Origin: a virus
Virus genome (UHGV): UHGV-0098759
Strand: one strand, 5' to 3'
Length of the DNA: 35,139 nucleotides
In this document: one piece after another, positions 1,553 through 27,312 of the stretch
Position numbering within the stretch: the stretch's first letter is position 1
Layout: each line of letters starts with the position of its first letter
The notes under the pieces: model-generated
What the model was told of the DNA's origin: nothing
Databases searched by the model: none
The model's input: the letters and a program-made list of their open reading frames with translations, nothing else
Made by a program: the position numbers and the translations under genes

Positions 1553-1592
1553 GCCCCTATCGTTATAATACGCGGTAGGGGCGTTTTTGTTT
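1553..1592 (+). terminator. hairpin plus T-run downstream of the 1119..1538 gene
   Basis: Stem GCCCCTA/TAGGGGC with a large loop containing TTATAAT, followed by GTTTTTGTTT; could alternatively be a recombinase-proximal site. Confidence 0.35.
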
Positions 1593-1601
1593 GGAAATGG
1601 T

Positions 1602-3281
1602 ATGAAAACTAAACTGTATTCGTATATTCGCTTCTCGTCTATGCGTCAGAATGATGGTTCGAGTTATGAACGACAAATCAGGATGGCTAGAGAGATTGCG
1701 GTAAAGTATGACCTTGAACTGGTAAATGATTATCAGGATCTGGGTGTATCTGCGTTTAAGGGTGCTAACTCCAAAACAGGGGCGCTATCTCGTTTCCTTG
1801 ATGCAATAGGTAGATCCGTTCCTGTTGGTAGCTGGCTATTCATCGAAAACTTGGACCGTTTATCCCGTGCCGATATTGTCAGTGCGCAGGAGTTATTCCT
1901 TTCAATCATCCGTAGGGGGATAACCATTGTTACTGGCATGGATAACAAGATCTACTCGCTGGATACTGTTACCGCTAACCCGATGGACCTGATGTTCTCC
2001 ATCCTTTTATTCATCCGTGGTAATGAGGAAAGCCAGACTAAGCGCAATCGTACTAACTCAAGCGCACTGATTAAGATTAAAGCTCATCAAGAAAATCCAC
2101 AAAATCCGGCTGTTGCAATCGAGGAAATTGGAAAGAATATGTGGTGGACTGATACCACATCTGGTTATGTGCTTCCTCATCCGGTCTTCTTCCCTATTGT
2201 TCAGGAAGTTGTGGAATTACGCAGGAATGGACGGTCAACCGCCGAGATACTGGATCACCTTAACGCGACATACACACCACCACCAGCCGCAAGTCACAAG
2301 AGGCATTCAAACTGGTCACGGGCAATGATTGAAAGGTTGTTCCATACCCGCGCTTTGATTGGTATCAAGGAAATCTCTGTAGATGGCGTTAAGTATGAGT
2401 TAAAGGATTATTATCCTCGTGTGCTAGATGACGCTGAGTTTTATCACCTTAAGAAAAGCATTGGTGTTAGAGCATGTAACTTTGGAGACAAAGAAGAAGT
2501 TAAACCTATTCCCTTGCTTAGTGGTGTTGGTCTATTGAAATGTGAACATTGCGGTTCCGCTATGGTTAAGGTGAAAGGAACAAACAGACGGCCTAACCAA
2601 TATCGTTATTCATGCGATGCAATGCGCTCTAGTCGTATTGAATGTGTGCATACAAACTGGAGTTTTCGCGGCGACCAATTAGAGAAAGCTGTATTGCAAT
2701 TGCTGGCTGATAAAATCTGGATTGCTGAAGATAAGGCTAATCCGGTTCCGGCTTTGAAAGTACAGATTGATGAAATATCACGCAAGATTGATAACCTGAT
2801 TACCCTTTCTGCTATGACAGGAGCAACGAAGGAGCTAGCCGATCAGATTACTACCCTCAATAGCGAGCGTGAAACACTCTACAATCAAATTAAGATGGCA
2901 GAAGAGGAAATGTATTCTGTTGACTCTCAAGGCTGGGAGAAGCTCGCAGAATTTGATTTAGAAGATGTTTACAACGAGGATCGCATTAAGGTCCGGTTTA
3001 AGATTAAGCAAGCTCTAAAACGGATCGGGTGTAGCAGGATTGACAAGTACAAAAACTTGTTTGTATTGGAATACATCGATGGCAAGACCCAGAGAGTTGT
3101 AATAGAAAATTCAAGAGGACCGAGGAAAGGCCGGATCTTCATTGATTTGAAGACTATCAATGATAGGCAGATTCTGGAGAGTAACGGGCTTGTTCTGCAT
3201 CCATGTTTAGACATGCTGACAGATAAGAACTGGAAACCAGAAGAAGAAATACCAGGTCCATTACAGGAATTTGGAATTTAA
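1602..3281 (+). CDS. large serine recombinase (integrase-type)
   Basis: N-terminal YIRFSSMRQ matches the serine-recombinase catalytic motif; C-terminal Cys-rich zinc-ribbon (CEHCGS...YRYSC...IECVH) and coiled-coil region; track ORF starts at TTG 1587, first in-frame ATG is 1602. Confidence 0.8.
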   Translation: MKTKLYSYIRFSSMRQNDGSSYERQIRMAREIAVKYDLELVNDYQDLGVSAFKGANSKTGALSRFLDAIGRSVPVGSWLFIENLDRLSRADIVSAQELFLSIIRRGITIVTGMDNKIYSLDTVTANPMDLMFSILLFIRGNEESQTKRNRTNSSALIKIKAHQENPQNPAVAIEEIGKNMWWTDTTSGYVLPHPVFFPIVQEVVELRRNGRSTAEILDHLNATYTPPPAASHKRHSNWSRAMIERLFHTRALIGIKEISVDGVKYELKDYYPRVLDDAEFYHLKKSIGVRACNFGDKEEVKPIPLLSGVGLLKCEHCGSAMVKVKGTNRRPNQYRYSCDAMRSSRIECVHTNWSFRGDQLEKAVLQLLADKIWIAEDKANPVPALKVQIDEISRKIDNLITLSAMTGATKELADQITTLNSERETLYNQIKMAEEEMYSVDSQGWEKLAEFDLEDVYNEDRIKVRFKIKQALKRIGCSRIDKYKNLFVLEYIDGKTQRVVIENSRGPRKGRIFIDLKTINDRQILESNGLVLHPCLDMLTDKNWKPEEEIPGPLQEFGI

Positions 3282-15678: not shown

Positions 15679-18600
15679 TTATTTAGTTGCTTTCAGTTCG
15701 GCAATTTCTTTCTGTAATGCTTCGATCTGTGTTTTATATTTGGCGTCCATTTCCTGCATAGCTTTAATAATCAAGGCATTAACAGCAGAGTTAGAAATAG
15801 TCTTGATTGCTTCCGGTTGTTCTGGATCTTCTGTGGATTGAATACCTACTGCTTCCGGCAATACTTTTTCCAGATCCTGAGCAATAATACCTACTTCGCG
15901 TTTAATCACCGTGTCATCGGAAAGAGATTTAACTTTATCGTAGGTGTAGACTTTCAGTGAGTTTACTTTCTCTAATGCACCGTCCTGTAATTCTTCCTTG
16001 TTAATCTTCAAACGGGAGTCAGAGCGAATGTAAACATCGTTAAAGCTACCGTTACGACCTGCGCTAAAATCACCCGCAGCGTTAAAGTCAAAGTTGGCGT
16101 CGTGAACGTTTAGGCGAGCTAAAGCATTGGTAATAGTACCACTAGGAACATGCACACCCATTGCCGCAATATGATATTTTCCCCAATGAGTCGCTTTCCA
16201 GATGTTATGAGCGGAATCGGTTGAGTTCGGACAGTCTACGAGGATTCCGGCAGAACGATCACGCCAGCTAGCCCAGCTACCACCAGCAACATTACCACGA
16301 ATCAAACCTTTATCAGACCCGCCGACAGTCCCCGCCTCAAGATGAATCATTTTATCAGCAAGTTTCCAAGTTTGACCTTGTTTCTGACCACGGAAGCGGA
16401 TAACACCAGCATCATCGCAGTACATCAAACCTAATTCTAAACCGTTCGGATCTCTAAACCATAAATGCTTATTACCACTGCGACGAAACTCAATATCAGC
16501 ACCGCCAACCTGTATATTGCTCGCAGTTTTTAATGTACCAGCAACAGAGAACAGGATAGGACCAGTTCCACCGTTTGTACGTTCGGTATACCAATGATAA
16601 CTAGTAGCATCCTTACATTCAAAAACCTGTTTGCGTTGCTCGTTACCCCATGTATGTAAGGTAAATTGAGACGCAGATCCACGATTAGCATCAAAGGCAA
16701 TCTCACCGGATTCTACACGCACGAAGCCTTTAAAACGTGCTGTGATATTGCCAGTACCCATAGCGCGTTCAGTGGTAAAGTGTGCACCCTGACTGTCTTC
16801 AATCTGTAGGATGTTATCGCGAGCGTTATTACTATCGCCCCAATGGTTAAACCGGAAGTAATCGCGGGATTGTCCAGCACCAGCATCAAATGTTAAATGT
16901 TGACCTTTGATGTAAGCGTTGCCAGAGAATCGAGCGGCCTTGCTTGCGCGTTCTAGAGTTAATACATCTTCGTTTCCATCACCACCTAATTGAACGTTAC
17001 CGGAAGTAAGATCGTAGATAAAAGGTCGATATGTATTCCAACCACCAAATCTATCATTTTCGGCAGTAGACAACAGATAAACTTTACCACCATCATTTCG
17101 CCAGAATGCACCATACTTACCGTAAATCATACGGAATGCATCAGCGTTAGCGGAATAATATTGACCATTGGTATATACAATTTTTGTTTTTCCTGTAGTC
17201 AAATTTACTTGTCCACTACCTTCCAAATCAAATGAGTTAGCACCAACATCATTACGCCACACAAAACCATCACTAGTACCATCCGCATGACCGATATAAC
17301 CACTACGTTGGTTTTTACCATCACGACGATCCCACCACGCCATATATGCAGCTTGACCAGTCTGTCGATGTAAAGTCATCGCATTACCACTACCGTGCAA
17401 TTCCATTTTACCAGTAATTACATATCCTTTATAATTACCCGGTATTGCACTATTAGAATCAATTCTAATAACTTCTGTAGAATCTGTAGCACCAGTAGCA
17501 AGACGATATACAGCACCCTGAACGGTTTCATGCCAAACCATTTCGTTATAGTTGCTACGGAATTTACGAATATATTTCCGTCCAGTACCTTTATCATTAC
17601 TTAGATGAACAATGTCATAGCTGTTTTGTGTGTTATCATCAAAACTTAACACACCACGTTTATTTTCAGTATTAAAAAGAGTTACGTTGCGACCACCGAT
17701 AACACCAACGGAAGGTTTAATTAACGTGGCTTCCGGCGTATCATAAACCGTCAAACTTACATAAACAGATTTCCCATATTCGACAATAACGTTATCGGTA
17801 TAACGCTGATATTTCACGTAGATATCATAGTTATCACCGGAAGTATTGACAGCAAATACCTCAAAATCTTTGTTTGTATTTCTACGGTATGCAATTACGT
17901 TAAGACCTTTAGGTCTATCGTTACCACTACGCAGAAGAATTTCTACTACGTCAACCTGATCATATGCCGTAACGTTGTAACCATTACCACCATGAATACG
18001 GAAAAACACACTACGCCCGTTTTGTGGAATTGTTGCGGTTGCCAATTTGAAATATGCAGATACGTTTTCGCTAGAATTGGGAACAGACATAACGACGTTT
18101 TTAACAAACATCTTATCAACTTCGGCTTTGGTGTATGCACCAATCTCGCCAGGAGTCGGCTTATCACCTTCGTGATACATCTTATAGCTAAAGTTCTTCT
18201 GTCCTTCTCTATCAAAACCATAGGTTTCAACACGAGATCCACCAGATGCATAACGGAAAGTAAATCCGCGACCGTGCGCTTTACCGGAAGAGTGAGGAAC
18301 GTTAAGAGTTAGATCCATGAGTCCATCTTGACCATTGGTACGGAAAGCACCAAAGTAGTTAAGATCTCGTGATGTCTGGTCTTCCAGATAGTTAGCTGTC
18401 TTGCTTAACAGATACCCACCATGCTTAGTATTGGTATTCTTCTTGATGTAAAGAGCATCATTGCTACCTTCAATACCATCAATTCGTTTGTTAGCGGCTG
18501 CAATTGCGGCATCAGTAGAAGATTTATTCTGGTCTACCTTGTTGTTAATTGCGGTATGGTTGCTATTAACAGTGCCAGTAAGATTGGTAATCTTAGTATC

Positions 18601-19281
18601 CGCGTCTTTCTTATTGTCGGAAACAGTCTTTTCGATCGCTGTCTTGTTAGCTGCAACCGTGCTAGTTAAGCTAGAAATTTTGTTATCTGCATCGGTTTTA
18701 TTTGCAGTAACAGTTTTAGTTAAGTTGCTAACGTTGGTGTTAGTGGTATTAACCTTGTTGTTAATCGCGGTGTTATTGTCAGTGACCGTTTTCGTTAAAG
18801 CTGCATGTTTGCTATCTGCATCAGATTTGTTTGCGGCAACGGTTCTTTCAATTGCGGTCTTATTCGCAGATACGGTCCCCGTAAGGTTATTGATCTTAGT
18901 GTCGGCATCGGTTTTATTTGCCGTAACTGTCTGGGTTAAGTTACTAACAGTGGTGTTGGTAGCATCAATGCGCTTATTGGTCGCTGTATCTTTCGTGGTA
19001 ATAGTCTGATTCAGTTCAGCTTTAGCACTAGCCAGATTATTAGCGGCCTCTTGTTTGTTGGAAGCAATAACACGGTCAGTGCTAGTTTTGTTATTGTCTA
19101 CTTTCGTGTTTAAAGCATTATGACTTTCTGGGGAAACGCTGATTTGAACTACTGCGTTATTTTTGTCTTTGGTGTAAATTACATGGTCTGCCATCTGAAT
19201 AGCGATTTCACCGACCTGTAATTGTTCCGGCGTTGGTTTTTTACCAGCCGTTTGTGTGCGTTTAAATTGGATTGATTGCAT
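15679..19281 (-). CDS. long tail fibre with heptad-like shaft repeats and C-terminal intramolecular-chaperone-like domain
   Basis: 1200 aa; N-terminal third has repeats of type TVTANKTDADTKINNLTGTV; C-terminus (...SDSRLKINKEEL...IEALQKEIAELKATK) resembles self-cleaving chaperone domains of phage fibres; KPTP.EIGA motif at N-terminus and internally. Confidence 0.75.
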   Translation of the reverse strand: MQSIQFKRTQTAGKKPTPEQLQVGEIAIQMADHVIYTKDKNNAVVQISVSPESHNALNTKVDNNKTSTDRVIASNKQEAANNLASAKAELNQTITTKDTATNKRIDATNTTVSNLTQTVTANKTDADTKINNLTGTVSANKTAIERTVAANKSDADSKHAALTKTVTDNNTAINNKVNTTNTNVSNLTKTVTANKTDADNKISSLTSTVAANKTAIEKTVSDNKKDADTKITNLTGTVNSNHTAINNKVDQNKSSTDAAIAAANKRIDGIEGSNDALYIKKNTNTKHGGYLLSKTANYLEDQTSRDLNYFGAFRTNGQDGLMDLTLNVPHSSGKAHGRGFTFRYASGGSRVETYGFDREGQKNFSYKMYHEGDKPTPGEIGAYTKAEVDKMFVKNVVMSVPNSSENVSAYFKLATATIPQNGRSVFFRIHGGNGYNVTAYDQVDVVEILLRSGNDRPKGLNVIAYRRNTNKDFEVFAVNTSGDNYDIYVKYQRYTDNVIVEYGKSVYVSLTVYDTPEATLIKPSVGVIGGRNVTLFNTENKRGVLSFDDNTQNSYDIVHLSNDKGTGRKYIRKFRSNYNEMVWHETVQGAVYRLATGATDSTEVIRIDSNSAIPGNYKGYVITGKMELHGSGNAMTLHRQTGQAAYMAWWDRRDGKNQRSGYIGHADGTSDGFVWRNDVGANSFDLEGSGQVNLTTGKTKIVYTNGQYYSANADAFRMIYGKYGAFWRNDGGKVYLLSTAENDRFGGWNTYRPFIYDLTSGNVQLGGDGNEDVLTLERASKAARFSGNAYIKGQHLTFDAGAGQSRDYFRFNHWGDSNNARDNILQIEDSQGAHFTTERAMGTGNITARFKGFVRVESGEIAFDANRGSASQFTLHTWGNEQRKQVFECKDATSYHWYTERTNGGTGPILFSVAGTLKTASNIQVGGADIEFRRSGNKHLWFRDPNGLELGLMYCDDAGVIRFRGQKQGQTWKLADKMIHLEAGTVGGSDKGLIRGNVAGGSWASWRDRSAGILVDCPNSTDSAHNIWKATHWGKYHIAAMGVHVPSGTITNALARLNVHDANFDFNAAGDFSAGRNGSFNDVYIRSDSRLKINKEELQDGALEKVNSLKVYTYDKVKSLSDDTVIKREVGIIAQDLEKVLPEAVGIQSTEDPEQPEAIKTISNSAVNALIIKAMQEMDAKYKTQIEALQKEIAELKATK

Positions 19282-20199: not shown

Positions 20200-20622
20200 T
20201 TAAAAACGCGCTAGATAAGAAAATTTAAGGCTAAGTGTCCCAACGATACCCCCATCACTAGAATCATCGTCATAATCGGTATTAGAAGCTACTGGAGTGA
20301 TATCTGAAATAGAGAAGCCCAAATCTTTAAATCGTGGGTTATCCGGCTGAATCTGGATTATCTGGCAAATACCCTCATGGATTTTTGTTTCATGAATCTG
20401 AGAATATAATTGCATTTCGATAACGCATTCAGCTTGCATTGCATTACCACCACGGACCCTAGTGTAAGTCTCATTCATGCCAGTAATCCAACAAACCACG
20501 TCATCACTAAAACCTTGCTGAGTTTGTTCTACGTTTAAAGCCAGACCTAAATCTTGTTCGATAATATCTTGCAAGGCGCGTTTGATTTTCAGTCTAGGCA
20601 TATTATTAACGGTAGCGAGCAT
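20200..20622 (-). CDS. head-tail joining or tail completion protein (hypothetical)
   Basis: Position between the capsid and tail genes; ATG at 20622 with RBS AGGGGG preferred over the track start at 20670, which overlaps the upstream ORF by 65 nt. Confidence 0.45.
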   Translation of the reverse strand: MLATVNNMPRLKIKRALQDIIEQDLGLALNVEQTQQGFSDDVVCWITGMNETYTRVRGGNAMQAECVIEMQLYSQIHETKIHEGICQIIQIQPDNPRFKDLGFSISDITPVASNTDYDDDSSDGGIVGTLSLKFSYLARF

Positions 20623-20896
20623 GTGTACCCCCTGCCAGAGTAATAAAGCAATCAGTGGTATTATCACCATTGCGCTTAACGTATTGAACTTTGAAACGCT
20701 GATTTTCTACAGTGACAATATCACCCTGCTTTAAGTCTCCCTCACGACAAAATAGAAATTCTGTCTCTGTCATTACCCCTGATTCGTCGGTAGTAGTAAT
20801 TTCATGATAAGCACGAATTGATTTACCACCTTCCACCGAAAATACAGGAGCACTCTTAAACATTCTTGATAATTGTGATTCTGATAATTTGAACAT
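20606..20896 (-). CDS. head-tail connector or head completion protein (hypothetical)
   Basis: 96 aa immediately after the capsid gene; RBS AAAGGGGG. Confidence 0.45.
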   Translation of the reverse strand: MFKLSESQLSRMFKSAPVFSVEGGKSIRAYHEITTTDESGVMTETEFLFCREGDLKQGDIVTVENQRFKVQYVKRNGDNTTDCFITLAGGTHARYR

Positions 20897-20925: not shown

Positions 20926-20955
20926 CAAAAAAGCCCCGCCAATAACGGCAGGGCT
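20926..20955 (-). terminator. intrinsic terminator after the capsid extension (AGCCCUGCC-GUUAUU-GGCGGGGCU, then U6)
   Basis: 9-bp stem with one G-U wobble formed only on the minus-strand RNA, followed by a T6 run. Confidence 0.6.
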
Positions 20956-20960
20956 AATTA

Positions 20961-21089
20961 TTATTCTTTAGTTTTACGCTGTTTTTTAGCTGTGGCTTTC
21001 GCCTTAACCGTCTGGGATTCTTCTTCCGGTTCAGGAATCAGATTTTCTTCCCCCAAATCGGGGGAAGGTTCAGATGGTTCTACAGGAGT
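20961..21089 (-). CDS. in-frame post-TGA extension of the major capsid protein (43 codons; ...IPEPEEESQTVKAKATAKKQRKTKE)
   Basis: TGA at 21090-21092 is followed by 43 sense codons in frame ending at TAA 20961-20963; no ATG inside; Pro/Glu-rich linker then basic AKATAKK tail. Confidence 0.5.
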   Translation of the reverse strand, partial: TPVEPSEPSPDLGEENLIPEPEEESQTVKAKATAKKQRKTKE

Positions 21090-23090
21090 TCATTCAGCGG
21101 AGATGTGAAGAACTTTCAGGGCTTCCGGCTGAGTAACAACATAATCCAGGTCTACCCAGATTCGCGGAACGATAGCAGACTGTGCGCGGTAGGTAGTGTC
21201 GTCCATATCCAGTTCCAGACCGCCCCACTCACCAATGGTGATACCGTCGAACGCGCCCAGAACGATGTGGTCTGCCGGGATAACACCAGAAGTAACTACT
21301 TCGTAACCAGCCAGTTTGCCGTTTTCGATGATATAACCGGAAACGCCGTTATCTTTCAGGGTAGATTCCAGTTCAGCAGCAGTTGCACCGCTCATCGCAA
21401 ACTTGATCGCCTGAGCAGGAACGCCAGCGTCGGTCAGTGCTGCAATTTCTTTCAGGAAGTCTTTGTAAGAGAAAGCGGCTTTCTTAGTAACGCGACCCGC
21501 GTCTACCAGTTGCTTAACCAGACCAGCCGGACCACGAGCATTTTCTTTATCAGACAGAATCAGTTGTTCCAGTTTGATCCGAACAGATTTGTTAATGTGA
21601 TCGGTGATCAGGGTAGCAATATTCGGAACAGTTTTCAGAGACTGACGGCTGATCGGGTTGCCACCAGCAAAAGTTTTCGGAGCCATTTTCACGTTTGCAA
21701 ATTCAGCTTTGCTTTCCGGTGCAGCACCGTTTTCATCAACGAAACCGAAAGCATCAACGCTGGAAGTAGTCATTTTCGGTACAGCAATCGGAGCATTCAG
21801 ACCAGACAGAACAGTCACACCGAGGCGGCCTAAAACACTCTGAGGCAACAGCATTTCAACATAGGATTCGGTCAGCAGTTTTTCGTCAGTTACAGCGGTC
21901 AGAGTAGCTTTGGTGTTACCTTCGGAAGCAGCACGCAGAGCAGCAGCCGGAACGAATACAGAGCCACCGCGAGCAGCACGACCACGCTGCATTGCAGCAC
22001 CAGCAGCCATAGCGGAATATTCAGCTTCGTTAGCACCCAGAGCAGCACCATCTACCAGAGAGCGAATTACGTTGTTCAGGTCAAAAGTTTTTTCCATTTT
22101 AGAGTCCTTAATTTGTTCGTTATTACGTTGAGCATTGGTAATGTTATTTAGTGCCTTAGTGCGGAATGCTTCCGGCGTCATGTCTTTAACTGCCAATGCG
22201 CGTTCTAATTCTTCGTCGTTAATATTTAGCTCGCGAGCGATCTCGCGAATTTCTAATTCGTCTTCTTCGGAACGTTCAGCCACTTCTTCGATTTTTTCTT
22301 CTTCAACCGGAGCGGCTTCACGTTCTTCTTTTACTTCTTCTTCCCGAACAGTTGAACTATCATCATCAACACTTTCAGGATGTTCAGCGTCTTTTCCGTC
22401 TTCGAGATTTTCATTTTCTTTATTCTCTTCAACTTGGCGCTCTTGAGTTTCTTCAACTTCCGGTTCTTTAATTTCTTCTACCGGAGTTTCTTCAACCTGA
22501 GCGGGTTCTTGTTCTTCTTTGATTTCTTCGATTTGTTCTTTAGTCATATCGCGTTTAGCCTCCAAATTAACTGTGATAGTATTTAGAGAGCGATTTAAAC
22601 CGACCGTATCGTCTGCGGGAACGGTGACAAATGAGAGTTCATAGGGTGCCCACTTAGTAACAATCAATTGTCCTTTGGTGTAGTCGATGTGATATTCTTT
22701 AATGTCATAACCGACAGAAATTTTTTCCATCGTACCTTCAATGACTTTATTACGAATATCATTAGCCAAAGTGCCATGCTTGGAGAATTTAACCAGAGCA
22801 CGACCTACGTTATCCGCATCGATTCGAGCGTTACAAACGACACCAATGTGATTATCGAAATTATGATTGAACAGCAACGGAGCGTTATTATTCAGACGAG
22901 ACAGATCAACCGCTTCCGGTGTATGTACCAGAATTTCATCTAATACCACCATTTCTTGATTTTGCTCATCCCAGAATTGGCGCTGATAAGGCTGTTCACT
23001 GGAGAAAGCAATTTCAAATTCGTATTGATCATTCTGCCCTTCGTTAATAACTCCACCGTAACCGTTAAGATCGCGGCGAAATTTAAGCAT
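21090..23090 (-). CDS. fused prohead protease - scaffold-like linker - major capsid protein (HK97-fold)
   Basis: N-terminal ~190 aa carry prohead-protease motifs (PLLFNHNF, SVGY, ELSFVTVPAD); acidic Glu/Lys/Pro-rich middle; C-terminal ~330 aa capsid-like; RBS AAGGTGA; ends in TGA. Confidence 0.8.
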   Translation of the reverse strand: MLKFRRDLNGYGGVINEGQNDQYEFEIAFSSEQPYQRQFWDEQNQEMVVLDEILVHTPEAVDLSRLNNNAPLLFNHNFDNHIGVVCNARIDADNVGRALVKFSKHGTLANDIRNKVIEGTMEKISVGYDIKEYHIDYTKGQLIVTKWAPYELSFVTVPADDTVGLNRSLNTITVNLEAKRDMTKEQIEEIKEEQEPAQVEETPVEEIKEPEVEETQERQVEENKENENLEDGKDAEHPESVDDDSSTVREEEVKEEREAAPVEEEKIEEVAERSEEDELEIREIARELNINDEELERALAVKDMTPEAFRTKALNNITNAQRNNEQIKDSKMEKTFDLNNVIRSLVDGAALGANEAEYSAMAAGAAMQRGRAARGGSVFVPAAALRAASEGNTKATLTAVTDEKLLTESYVEMLLPQSVLGRLGVTVLSGLNAPIAVPKMTTSSVDAFGFVDENGAAPESKAEFANVKMAPKTFAGGNPISRQSLKTVPNIATLITDHINKSVRIKLEQLILSDKENARGPAGLVKQLVDAGRVTKKAAFSYKDFLKEIAALTDAGVPAQAIKFAMSGATAAELESTLKDNGVSGYIIENGKLAGYEVVTSGVIPADHIVLGAFDGITIGEWGGLELDMDDTTYRAQSAIVPRIWVDLDYVVTQPEALKVLHISAE

Positions 23091-23135
23091 TTAATCACCT
23101 TTAATTAATTGGGGGCATTGCGCCCCCGTTGGTTA

Positions 23136-24647
23136 TTAGGGATCGGCTGGGGAATTTTTTTCTTCACCCTCGCCATTAACGATAATATTTAGTGCGCTCT
23201 TTTCGGCTTGAATCTCTGAGAATACTTTTTCAGGATCATCACCACGTTCAAGAATAACGGCAGTACGTGATTTAAGTCCTTTATCAATTAAAGCAATATC
23301 AGCGTTTACGTCTTTAATAACATCGACAGACTCGAAACGTGGCCTGATAATAGTAGTGTTATCGATAATATGTGGAATTGCAGTAATACGAATCGGAACA
23401 ATACCACGCGCAGAATAATGACGCAGATACGCTTCGAAAATTGGCAACACCACTGTTTCAATCAATTTGTTTTGCAGCGATTTAACACGGTTACGTTGAA
23501 GCAATTCGCCGAAACGCGCGGCTGAGTAGTTGATTTGTGAACAATCTCCTGTTAAGCCCTGTTTGAACACGCCTAAGCCCATTGATACGCTAGTAAACAT
23601 CGCATCATTGAAGGAATTGAAATCATCGCCTGATTGAGTAGCTTGGATTGATTTAATCGTTGCCCCTTCCGGCAATTCCTGAATAGTACCCGGTGCAAAA
23701 TCCTGTACTACTTCCGGCGCTTGATATTGTTCATCCTCTTCACCAGTATCAAAATCGTCACCAGAATCTTTCGGACGTTCGATAAAGCCCATAGAGCTAG
23801 CTGCAATACGTTTCTGGATGATCGCGGTTTCGCGGAATGCGTCTTGATGCGCAATATCCTTGATCACTGGCAGGAAGTCAGTCACACCACGCAGAGATTC
23901 GGCCGCAAGTGGTTGATAATAATGGCATACTTGCGAAGCATCTACGCGATAGTTATCACCTGTGTAAGTCTGAGTCAGTAGGTTGATTTTACGAAACCAA
24001 AATGCAACAGGGCGCATTGTTTCTACGTCATACTCGATCCCCTGATAGATAGCGCGTTCTTTGCTTACTTCACGGTTGAGCGTCCAGTCGCACTTATCAG
24101 CAGACAGGATAGAAACATTTAACTCATTGTTTTCTTTGGTTAAAACTATGAAGCACTCACCACCCATAACGCGCTCACGTTCAGCCATTACCAGCAATTC
24201 ACGGAAGTTAAAGCGACCGTTACGAGAGAAGCGTTTAGCATTCTGCGCCCACTTCCAGAAAGCATTCTCGATCTGCTTATTCAGTGCGCTATCAAGTTTG
24301 CCATTTGATTTAACAACTGACGGCTTCGGATCTAGACCAGTACCAACCACCATATCGGTGATGTATTGCGTGTAGCGACTGCCTACGGAAGTGTTTAAGG
24401 CCAGAGTACGACCCTGATCATAAAGGCGCTTACCGTTCGATTTGAGAGCCTTATTGAAGGTTCCTGTGATAGTATCTTGTTGAAGCGATCCATCAATGCG
24501 ATCACCAACCAGTCCTAAACTACGTTTAGATATGTCTTTCTGGTATCTTTCTATAGATTTGTCGATGAAAATTTTTGGTTGTTGCTGGCGGTGATTAGTT
24601 TTAACTGGAGTTTCTACCGCCTTTTTGCGTCGAAAAAGATTAAACAT
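23136..24647 (-). CDS. portal protein, lambda B-like
   Basis: 503 aa, directly downstream of the large terminase region and upstream of the protease-capsid gene; RBS AAGGGG. Confidence 0.8.
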   Translation of the reverse strand: MFNLFRRKKAVETPVKTNHRQQQPKIFIDKSIERYQKDISKRSLGLVGDRIDGSLQQDTITGTFNKALKSNGKRLYDQGRTLALNTSVGSRYTQYITDMVVGTGLDPKPSVVKSNGKLDSALNKQIENAFWKWAQNAKRFSRNGRFNFRELLVMAERERVMGGECFIVLTKENNELNVSILSADKCDWTLNREVSKERAIYQGIEYDVETMRPVAFWFRKINLLTQTYTGDNYRVDASQVCHYYQPLAAESLRGVTDFLPVIKDIAHQDAFRETAIIQKRIAASSMGFIERPKDSGDDFDTGEEDEQYQAPEVVQDFAPGTIQELPEGATIKSIQATQSGDDFNSFNDAMFTSVSMGLGVFKQGLTGDCSQINYSAARFGELLQRNRVKSLQNKLIETVVLPIFEAYLRHYSARGIVPIRITAIPHIIDNTTIIRPRFESVDVIKDVNADIALIDKGLKSRTAVILERGDDPEKVFSEIQAEKSALNIIVNGEGEEKNSPADP

Positions 24648-25223: not shown

Positions 25224-27137
25224 TTAAAAGTTATTTACCCACCCACCACGACGCACAGGACGCGCCATAGGACGACGATTAGGTTTGTGATGAGTGATTG
25301 GCTTAGTTTCTTCGATTTGCTCGTTAGAATGTGATTTAGGAGCTTCTACGGTTGCTTCTGGTTCACGATTCAGCTTTTCTTTCATTGCAATGAGCTTATC
25401 CCATGACATTTTTGAAAGAACATAGCGAGAAGCCGCATAGCTATAAACCAGACAGTCGAGCGCCTCGTTTCGTGTCGCACCTGGATTTTTTACCCAACGT
25501 GTTCCAGTAACAGTACGCTTGATGGATTCACTCAAAAGCTGATCGAGATAATCATCAGGAACGGTTTCTGATATCTCTAAACCAATATGAGGGTTTTCTT
25601 TCAAGTTGCGTGTTAATAGCTCACGAATAGCCGTTTTACCCACGTTAACGCCCAACATAAGCAATTCATGACCACCCGTGGTAGTTGGTTTCACCGGAAT
25701 GATTGGAGCAGTACCAGATGAACTACCTTTGATTGCGTGTAAGTTCTTCCACTTACCACCGCAAATACGGTATCCGGCTTGAGTGAATCGACCGTTCGAT
25801 GTATCAAGGAAGCTGGCGAGCATAGGAACACGATCACCCGATACAGTAGTAAATTTGGTTTTATGGAAGTTGATTAATCTGTCCCATACAGGAGATTCAT
25901 ATCGTTCACAGTTATGGTCGTAAAAGCTGCGATGATCCAGAATATAAATCTTATCCTTTGCCACGCCCATGATCGTAGTTTCTGCGCGATCTAATTGCTG
26001 GTCAGTACCCGCACACAAGAAAATCACGTCATCAGGGATATTCTCGATAGAAACATCTGTTTTGAGTTGTTCCAGTTCATTTGCTTCTACTGCCGTGTCC
26101 TGATCGTCGTATACCTTACCTAACACTGTGTTATAAAATGATTGTAAATCAAAGGATTGCCACGCATGACTAAAATCAACCACACAAGCGCGGATACTAC
26201 TGAAAGGTGAATACAGACGGCTGATCCAGAATCCTGCTACTTCACTTTCACGGGTTGCTCTCCACTCGCCTTGCGCTACTGCCCTGATTCGTTCCCCTTC
26301 TGTCCATGATTGCTTACAGTGGGGGCAAATATAACGAGCGGTATCAGGATCGGGTAAGTTCTTACCATCGATGTTACGCCATTCAAATTGAACGTTTTCC
26401 CACTCGATCACCTGGTGTTCCCCGCAATGAGGACACGGAACAAAAAACATACGCATATCACTTGATAACCATTGCTGGTTAATGATTCCCAGCTTATTGG
26501 TTGGGGTACTAGAAACAATCAATCGAGCTTCATCACCAAAGGTAGTTAAACGGTTTGCAGTTAGTGCCACCGGACAACCTTCTTCGGTGATTGTTGCTGC
26601 GTCGCATTCGTCTACAATCCCTAACTTGGCAGTACGCCCACGCAAACTTGAAGGACTGGTCAAAGAAACCATGTAAAGGAAATGGTTTGTTTTTAGCTGA
26701 ATCTGGTTATTGTTGTTTACCGCATTACGATCATTCTTATCTGTTACCACTTCCTGTAATGCCGGACATGCTTCAATAGAAGGACGGATCTTAGTATTCA
26801 AGTACATAGCCACTTCTTTAGCGGTACTTTGCCCGATAATGATATTGCACGGATCGTTTGCCATCTGGTTAAACATGATCCCTGACATGATGGTCGTCTT
26901 TCCGATCTGCGCACTCGTACAAAAAACGTACTTCTTTTTCTTCTCAAGGAAAGGAGCATCAATCATGCCTTTCTGAAATGACAGTAATTTAACTTTATCC
27001 CCAGCACGAGGACCATCGACTAGCGTTAGATTCGCTTCGCACCATTCAGAAGGAAGGAGTTTAGGCGGTGGCGTAATATATTTGGCTGCATTTCTGAGAA
27101 TCTTTTTTAATTTGGCCTTATTAGAAATCAGTTTCAT
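25224..27137 (-). CDS. terminase large subunit, lambda A-like
   Basis: 637 aa; CPHCGEHQ and [14 protein letters not shown] motifs match the corresponding lambda large-terminase segments as recalled; RBS GAGGG. Confidence 0.9.
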
Positions 27138-27225
27138 GTAATTACCCTCATTACGAAATATGAAGGTATTTATTAAATTGTTGATATTTTGATAAATACG
27201 GGTATTAAGATTTAAGGGGGGGTGT

Positions 27226-27312
27226 ATGCTAATTAATCAGCAAGAAAGAGATGAATTAGAATTAGCCTTGTCTTGTCTTGTCTTGTCTTGTCTTGTCTTG
27301 TACCGATCATGA
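27226..27312 (+). CDS. 29-codon leader ORF with strong RBS that reads through the (CTTGT)7 repeat and stops at TGA
   Basis: ATG at 27226 preceded by AAGGGGGGG; frame is +1 out of register with the long downstream ORF; the repeat tract lies inside it. Confidence 0.35.
27267..27301 (+). repeat. perfect pentanucleotide tandem repeat (CTTGT)x7
   Basis: Read directly: cttgt repeated seven times from 27267 to 27301, at the 5' end of the 191-aa ORF. Confidence 0.95.

Follow-up and report, generated by a model that had tools for sequence, protein, structure and literature searches.

A protease-scaffold-capsid fusion gene of an Escherichia coli prophage and a candidate UGA readthrough tail at its end

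The virus genome UHGV-0098759, a stretch of 35,139 nucleotides that we call the window, is an E. coli prophage whose region is 100% identical to DNA of the E. coli strains PI7 (NZ_CP074033) and 24AR0357. On its minus strand a single open reading frame (ORF) at 21090..23090, exactly where a preliminary description had placed it, encodes a 666-residue precursor of 73.4 kDa that combines a protease domain, an acidic spacer, a helical scaffold-like domain and a capsid protein, and that is 100% identical to a RefSeq 'phage major capsid family protein' of strain PI7. The fused head gene has an ATG start with the Shine-Dalgarno sequence AAGGTGA 5 nucleotides upstream, and it ends in GAA TGA ACT, followed by 42 in-frame sense codons (TPVEPSEPSPDLGEENLIPEPEEESQTVKAKATAKKQRKTKE), the tandem stops TAA TAA and a strong intrinsic terminator. 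We describe here the anatomy and likely maturation of the fusion, which belongs to a widespread class, and the in-frame tail behind its stop codon, which may be translated by readthrough.

Domain anatomy of the fused head gene

Protease, linker and capsid protein had been proposed to share one polypeptide, and they do: Pfam profiles for protease and capsid protein both match above their cut-offs within one uninterrupted frame. An AlphaFold2 model built on 103 diverse homologues (predicted local distance difference test score, pLDDT, 83) contains three confident bodies, at residues 21-168 (beta-rich), 270-390 (all-helical) and 404-666, with disordered stretches at residues 169-269 and 392-403.

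The first body (22587..23030, minus strand like all features of the gene described here) is a prohead serine protease domain of the Peptidase S78, or HK97 gp4, type. Pfam Peptidase_S78 (PF04586) matches residues 40-162 (E = 1.8e-10, 41.6 bits against a cut-off of 21), which bears out the prohead-protease motifs claimed for the N-terminal part; TIGR01543 also matches (E = 3.5e-9), its 36.9 bits falling under the equivalog cut-off of 59. The catalytic-type residues H76 (22863-22865) and S125 (22716-22718), together with a candidate third residue, E151 (22638-22640), are invariant in 103 and in 147 fused homologues sharing 24-45% identity with the query, and the spacing of 49 residues from H76 to S125 equals that which we take to separate H65 from S114 in HK97 gp4. 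A phmmer search of the domain against PDB sequences gave noise, the best match being SATB1 at E = 0.28. Since the full-length model returned capsid proteins alone from the PDB, the N-domain was modelled separately for the fold search, and it has the assemblin or prohead-protease fold. The preliminary description had made its proposal hang on such a fold being present. With a ratio of nonsynonymous to synonymous polymorphism (pN/pS) of 0.22, the domain is also under purifying selection, and these results support a prohead-protease fold with invariant catalytic-type His and Ser, from which proteolysis of the precursor is predicted. They bear equally on the idea that the domain is a dead relic, serving as scaffold mass while a host protease or another phage protease carries out maturation. 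A complement of 415 protease domains per prohead would be far above what we take HK97 to need, which speaks for a relic, but the invariance of the three residues across such divergent homologues, the purifying selection and the lack of any other protease match in the head module make a relic very unlikely.

The middle of the protein had been described as one scaffold-like linker rich in Glu, Lys and Pro. Its charged, scaffold-like character stands; the single linker does not, for there are two parts, a disordered spacer (residues 169-269; 22284..22586) and a helical domain (residues 270-390; 21921..22283). The stated composition has to be corrected to acidic, because the spacer contains 42% Asp and Glu against 13% Lys and Arg and 5% Pro, giving a net charge of about -28. 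Its pLDDT lies below 50, homologues show 48-78% gaps in it, column conservation is nearly zero, pN/pS is 0.55 and its length varies between lineages. The helical domain is of another kind, with AlphaFold2 helices at residues 275-287, 292-300, 306-335, 338-347, 353-368 and 382-389 (pLDDT about 90), a pN/pS of 0.30 and residues E355, G376, P381 and R386 conserved in at least 86% of homologues. A Pfam search with this domain found no significant family. It is likely the equivalent of a scaffold or 'delta domain' and would be removed at maturation.

The last body (residues 404-666; 21093..21881) makes up about 40% of the protein, somewhat more than the capsid-like third that had been announced. 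Pfam Phage_capsid (PF05065) matches residues 408-662 (E = 2.2e-25, 90.1 bits against a cut-off of 24.2), phmmer finds the roseophage R4C capsid protein in the PDB (8gta_A, E = 8.4e-25), and Foldseek ranks the same chain first (E = 1.2e-18, template modelling score to target 0.72), followed by the capsids of HK97 (1ohg/2ft1, E about 1e-11), D3, RcGTA and SaPI1. The domain has a pN/pS of 0.26, and profile and model matches agree in identifying it as an HK97-fold capsid protein.

Predicted maturation and spread of the architecture

Between the helical and capsid domains lies a predicted maturation-cleavage zone (residues 386-403, RAASEGNTKATLTAVTDE; 21882..21935). Residues 392-403 have pLDDT below 50 between two confident domains, R386 is 89% conserved, and the R4C chain 8gta_A starts at the equivalent of about residue 397, which would set the mature N-terminus at or before about that residue. 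By calculation, a cut after R386 would give a shell protein of 280 residues and 29.6 kDa; judged from the model and from R4C, cleavage anywhere in the zone would give one of about 270-280 residues. Gene 006 of R4C (Dinoroseobacter phage vB_DshS-R4C) encodes 629 residues in the same layout, and the deposited virion capsid chain is the C-terminal 268 of them, which fits removal of the N-terminal part. This chain and the published precedent of Gifsy-2 suggest that the precursor processes itself.

The gene would thus yield a 73-kDa precursor of four segments, namely an HK97-gp4-type serine protease, a flexible acidic spacer, a helical scaffold-like domain and an HK97-fold capsid protein. HK97, Gifsy-2 and R4C suggest by analogy that a T=7 prohead of about 415 precursors would be built on the lambda-type portal. 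Its interior would hold the 390-odd N-terminal residues of each precursor, which would serve both as scaffold and as a built-in protease present 1:1. Once crowded together in the shell, the protease domains would cleave the precursor at a site that probably lies between R386 and about T396 and would then digest the N-terminal part, leaving a shell protein of about 29-30 kDa and space for DNA. The pathway, the cleavage position and T=7 are all drawn from relatives: the R4C capsid is a T=7 shell of 415 copies of the gene 006 product (R4C structure paper), and on that model the capsid part here would form an icosahedral virion shell.

On one side of the fused gene is a portal gene of the lambda family (23136-24647) and on the other an FII-like head-tail gene (20606-20896); a gpA-type large terminase and a W-like protein are encoded further upstream. 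In the ORF list and in Pfam and PHROG searches, no separate protease, scaffold or decoration gene was found between the portal gene and the next head gene. No internal start has a good ribosome-binding site. On the simplest reading the complete precursor goes into the prohead, with one copy each of protease, scaffold and shell per polypeptide. In lambda, C and Nu3 are nested genes, and a comparable internal start here would give a protease-less scaffold-capsid protein and free protease and shell from a 1:1 ratio. In-frame Met codons do occur at residues 182, 304 and 332, but they fall outside conserved columns, and no in-frame ATG, GTG or TTG anywhere in the gene is preceded at 4-10 nucleotides by a match of at least 5/6 to AGGAGG; we consider such a product unlikely.

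The same architecture is common. A HMMER search against 1.84 billion cluster representatives found at least 454 clusters (50% identity) at E <= 1e-30, and among the best 150 representatives nearly all are 565-700 residues long and matched at both ends. PHROG 617, 'major head protein', aligns end to end (residues 20-661 with profile positions 23-621 of 626, E = 1.2e-92), and phrog_4523 is named 'major head and protease protein'. The NCBIfam model NF045541, 'prohead protease/major capsid protein fusion protein', aligns with residues 21-349 only (E = 3.5e-38), at 131.6 bits against a cut-off of 525; judged by these profiles, the protein is a relative of the same architecture outside that narrow family. 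Contig profile searches confirmed no locus when seeded with the single protein and 5 distant loci only when seeded with a 10-sequence alignment. Among cultured phages, the same fused gene occurs in R4C, RcCronus, phiHAP-1, VP882, the Xanthomonas phages FoX and Murka (annotated 'major capsid protein and protease') and coliphage ep3. The closest cultured-phage homologue, at 46% identity, is that of Escherichia phage DCP80 (PQ671644.1, our L002), a 141-kb record classified as Tevenvirinae whose first 8 kb hold a lambda-like gpA terminase, a portal and the fused capsid gene; the record may be chimeric or misclassified.

Fusion by artefact or decay, through an assembly error or the loss of a stop that once separated two genes, can be set aside on these counts. 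The terminase of the prophage that holds this copy is indeed flagged as a pseudogene, and some lysogens carry damaged capsid genes: IS903B, IS1A and IS2 insertions have inactivated the copies in H46, H62 and L049, locus L015 has lost 1 nucleotide from an A6 run, and L047 is frameshifted (its match length is not a multiple of 3). Nevertheless, 44 complete E. coli genomes and 32 IMG/VR contigs have the uninterrupted layout, and so do hundreds of 50% clusters and cultured phages from many hosts, which refutes an artefact and leaves it hardly any probability. In the E. coli genome H62, where IS1 splits the gene, the Prokaryotic Genome Annotation Pipeline calls one piece 'HK97 family phage prohead protease' and the other 'phage major capsid protein'.

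Several described systems are built alike. Gifsy-2 has a 'tripartite capsid gene' (Effantin et al. 2010, Virology 402:355), cited in PMC12315714 and PMC8538268, and is not known to have a readthrough tail. There too one gene of a lambdoid-type enterobacterial prophage supplies protease, central scaffold-like part and HK97-fold capsid, and the product is processed to the mature shell protein. The Gifsy-2 protease part is reportedly ClpP-like rather than S78, and its capsid is said to carry a gpD-like decoration trimer; the protease here is HK97-gp4-like, and there is no decoration gene. Fusions have also been described for Rhodobacter phages (PMC8601537), a 'protease-scaffold-capsid fusion' is typical of small actinophages (PMC7302621), and under that name or as a 'major capsid and protease fusion' it is routinely annotated in the Arthrobacter clusters AN, AU and AW and the Microbacterium cluster EE (PMC7302621, PMC9671004). 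The likeness to small actinophages, which have Gram-positive hosts and much smaller genomes, is one of tripartite architecture. R4C gp006, the Cronusvirus group (RcCronus, RcRhea), phiHAP-1, VP882 and FoX/Murka are whole-length homologues with 26-32% identity and the same domain order; they are distant in host and sequence, and in R4C the next gene follows gp006 directly, leaving no gap for a tail. HK97 itself resembles our prophage in its S78 protease, its capsid fold and the scaffold (delta domain) that is built into the capsid precursor and removed by the protease inside the prohead. It uses two genes, gp4 and gp5, and its protease is recruited non-covalently in sub-stoichiometric amounts, whereas here the protease is attached covalently, 1:1, through the acidic spacer of about 100 residues. 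The preliminary description had set the fused gene against lambda's separate C, Nu3 and E. In the three functions, the neighbours (gpA-type terminase, W-like gene, lambda-family portal, FII-like gene) and the gene order that comparison is sound, and lambda differs in that its genes are separate and partly nested. It fails for the protease family: lambda C belongs to a different one (S49/ClpP-like), and lambda also needs gpD.

Some points weigh against this account. The terminase of the identical RefSeq copy is flagged 'frameshifted; internal stop', so particles may not form from this copy; the R4C structure paper mentions neither protease nor cleavage, and its 268-residue chain could reflect the modelled part alone; the NF045541 score lies far under its cut-off; and the case for this prophage's particles comes from sequence and models. 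Even so, we think it highly probable that the fused precursor is the sole head-shell gene of a temperate, siphophage-like E. coli prophage and is processed as proposed. Because it belongs to a large and already named class, the fusion will not surprise a phage specialist and, on database evidence, is not new.

The TGA stop and the in-frame tail

The preliminary description had also linked the head gene to a readthrough extension, and the in-frame sequence beyond the stop is real. The candidate leaky TGA (21090..21092) is followed by 42 sense codons (20964..21089) that would encode an acidic, Pro-rich stalk (isoelectric point 4.05) and a basic tip (isoelectric point 10.7), and these end in the tandem stops TAA TAA (20958..20963). 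Directly past the stops, and ahead of the head-tail connector genes, a terminator scan and RNA folding place an intrinsic terminator with a 10-base-pair stem and a T run (20932..20955). Within the extension, starting 22 nucleotides past the TGA, lies an 8-base-pair G+C hairpin (CUUCCCCC-GAUUU-GGGGGAAG; 21047..21067). Readthrough would produce the junction ...VLHISAE-[W/C/R/G]-TPVEPSEPSPDLGEENLIPEPEEESQTVK.

Complete E. coli genomes supplied 15 and IMG/VR 32 of the 47 related loci across which we compared the tail. We weighed translation against the simpler view that the TGA is an ordinary stop and the 126 nucleotides behind it are an untranslated 3' region, for example an mRNA-stabilising structure and terminator, that happens to be open in frame. 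All 47 loci have TGA followed by A, in 19 flanking contexts; TAA or TAG never occurs, and both adjacent codons vary, which weighs against an ordinary stop. Frame 0 is open as far as the conserved tandem stop in all 27 distinct nucleotide versions, while frames +1 and +2 carry stops in every one of them. The versions have 28, 33, 42, 43, 44 or 45 codons, and the five independent indels in the alignment (3, 3, 6, 27 and 48 nucleotides) are all multiples of 3, which would happen by chance about 0.4% of the time. A double stop, TAA TAA or TGA TAA, is retained throughout. The basic tip recurs in the forms KKQRKTKE, KKERKTKAK, KKVGRPPKAK, KKAGRPPKAKE and KRGRKPKE (20964-21011 here; variants in L004, L049 and L050), some with a GRP or RGR that we take to be reminiscent of AT-hook DNA-binding motifs. 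The conserved TGA and the open in-frame tail thus lend comparative support to the idea, raised at the outset, of several capsid isoforms from one gene.

A second capsid lineage with only about 45% identity, whose protein ends in ...QKKVD (L048-L050), has the same TGA and then the tail in phase after it, and this too is unexpected for a chance ORF. DNA identity between the two lineages begins exactly at the TGA (TGAACTCCTGTAGAACC; seen in L048-L050 and L015, the junction being equivalent to 21075-21095). The stop and tail therefore behave as the left edge of a recombination module running into the head-tail genes, and the tail, in frame behind two such divergent capsid genes, as a portable unit. 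L015 is the sole locus out of frame, having one A fewer in an A6 run than L048-L050. A programmed -1 frameshift there (G_AAA_AAG) was considered and rejected: because L048-L050 keep the A6 run with the TGA in frame, L015 is best read as a deletion or sequencing error.

Other observations favour an untranslated region and weigh against translation. The tail is nearly neutral at the amino-acid level, its pN/pS of 0.78 exceeding the 0.55 of the acidic spacer and the 0.22-0.30 of the folded domains. What persists in it is the charge pattern and the length class rather than the sequence. The absence of stops is weak evidence when taken singly, since under neutrality it has P = 0.07 for at least 60 substitutions. 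The hairpin is part of the minimum-free-energy fold of the region, which folds well (z = -5.15), and in all long versions its stem is invariant even at third codon positions, with changes in the loop only, a sign of constraint at the RNA level; the 28-codon versions lack it, and at 22 nucleotides past the TGA it is too far away for a classic stimulator. The distant fused relatives checked, from Leclercia, Mangrovibacter and Escherichia sp. ESNIH1 (L051-L053, ending in TAA) and from DCP80, have no in-frame tail, and a search of 5.8 billion protein clusters found no tail fused by a sense codon, only a 33-residue ORF call. An ordinary stop is accordingly a serious contender, to which we give a little less than an even chance, whereas translation of the tail by low-level UGA readthrough, with the tail maintained for that reason, seems to us to have an even chance or slightly better on this comparison.

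The 33-residue call raises a further possibility, a separate small gene starting from an in-frame TTG at codon 12 of the long form. P0271, a 'hypothetical protein' (MGEENLIP...KAK) in a Caudoviricetes metagenome-assembled genome, is exactly this ORF, and most tail versions have the TTG. In 3 of the 27 versions, however, it has become TCG or TTA, no Shine-Dalgarno sequence precedes it (upstream sequence CCTTCCCCCGAT), it lies within the hairpin, and a separate start would not account for the 11 codons from TGA to TTG, which in every case stay open and in the phase of the capsid gene. Across the versions of the tail, conservation extends to no in-frame start codon. We therefore give a separate gene very little weight.

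Selenocysteine insertion at the UGA was rejected because no selenocysteine insertion sequence (SECIS) is present: Rfam gave no match to the stop and tail region at E < 0.3, SECIS included, and the only hairpin is the one 22 nucleotides downstream, missing from the 28-codon versions. No suppressor or other tRNA gene was found in the window. A frameshift extension of the T7 10B type was likewise rejected, the tail being in frame 0 and not in -1 or +1.

Two groups of known systems offer comparisons. In phage Qbeta a leaky UGA at the end of the coat gene, its next codon also starting with A, gives A1, a minor, C-terminally extended coat protein present in few copies in the capsid. Qbeta is a single-stranded RNA levivirus with an unrelated coat fold, and its extension of about 196 residues is folded and essential; here a double-stranded DNA tailed phage would carry a tail of 28-45 residues that is probably disordered. 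Closer in fold are the tailed phages T7 (10A/10B), T3, Lactobacillus phage A2 and Listeria phages A118, A500 and PSA, in which recoding of a single gene gives HK97-fold capsid proteins with two C-terminal forms. Their extensions all arise by -1 or +1 frameshift (PMC5009743). A tail in the zero frame behind a stop would require readthrough rather than a frameshift, and limited literature searches on readthrough in tailed-phage capsid genes returned nothing relevant. A capsid isoform made by UGA readthrough is plausible and apparently undescribed.

If the tail is translated, a near-cognate tRNA would read the conserved TGA-A at a low level, and few of the roughly 415 subunits would carry the 43-residue tail with its acidic stalk and basic tip. 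In T7 the 10B extension lies on the outer surface, and by analogy the tail may do so here; a function in binding polyanions is speculation. Whether this E. coli prophage lineage makes a minor, C-terminally extended HK97-fold capsid protein by readthrough of a conserved UGA-A, with a tail of 28-45 residues as a portable module in a few copies per T=7 shell, we judge to be an evenly balanced question on the sequence evidence.

The prophage and the significance of the locus

Relatives of the element occur in 58 of 5,426 complete E. coli genomes (about 1%), chromosomal every time, and a megablast search with the head region found nothing similar at the DNA level among 50,697 phage records; in these data it appears to be known solely as a prophage. 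In strain PI7 it adjoins hicAB remnants and yncJ/rlhA. Its recombinase (window 1587-3281) is a large serine recombinase ('recombinase family protein') and not a tyrosine integrase.

The large terminase of the identical RefSeq record is a pseudogene of 2,027 nucleotides, corresponding to 25224-27250 of the window, minus strand. In the window itself, a clean ORF of 637 residues (25224-27137) has a Shine-Dalgarno sequence of its own and encodes the gpA ATPase and nuclease domains in full. Either relatives have a longer N-terminus or the copy here is damaged. No small-terminase gene is obvious beside it. An ACAAG pentanucleotide is repeated in tandem about 7 times at 27265-27300, just upstream of the terminase region and between divergent genes. 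The 45-nucleotide gap between portal and capsid genes holds a 7-base-pair G+C hairpin (GGGGGCGCAATGCCCCC; 23110-23128), which no T run follows on the coding strand. Unusually near the head genes lies a tail-fibre gene (15679-19281, minus strand), whose 1,200-residue product has a long N-terminal array of degenerate repeats (…NKTDADTKINNLTGTVSANKTAIE…) and a C-terminal segment that presumably resembles an intramolecular-chaperone or endosialidase-type domain. The half of the fused gene that encodes the capsid domain (window 21001-22000) has 50% G+C against about 41% in the remaining prophage. Synonymous divergence among relatives also peaks there, with pS at 0.30 compared with 0.05 in the acidic spacer, and the pattern points to mosaic ancestry or to codon adaptation for strong expression.

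The fusion itself adds little beyond an annotated example of a common economy, in which one gene provides shell, scaffold and protease in fixed 1:1 amounts. Its practical value is to annotators, who can treat a very common E. coli prophage protein as a precursor (about 73 kDa) with a predicted mature form of about 30 kDa. The readthrough tail is the more interesting feature. If it is translated, programmed readthrough, a hallmark of RNA viruses such as Qbeta, would extend to the capsid gene of a tailed phage; as far as our limited literature searches show, no earlier case of programmed stop-codon readthrough has been described for a structural gene of a tailed double-stranded DNA phage. A translated tail would also offer a natural site for low-copy display on an HK97-fold shell and serve in E. 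coli as a simple model of the context-dependent leakiness of UGA.

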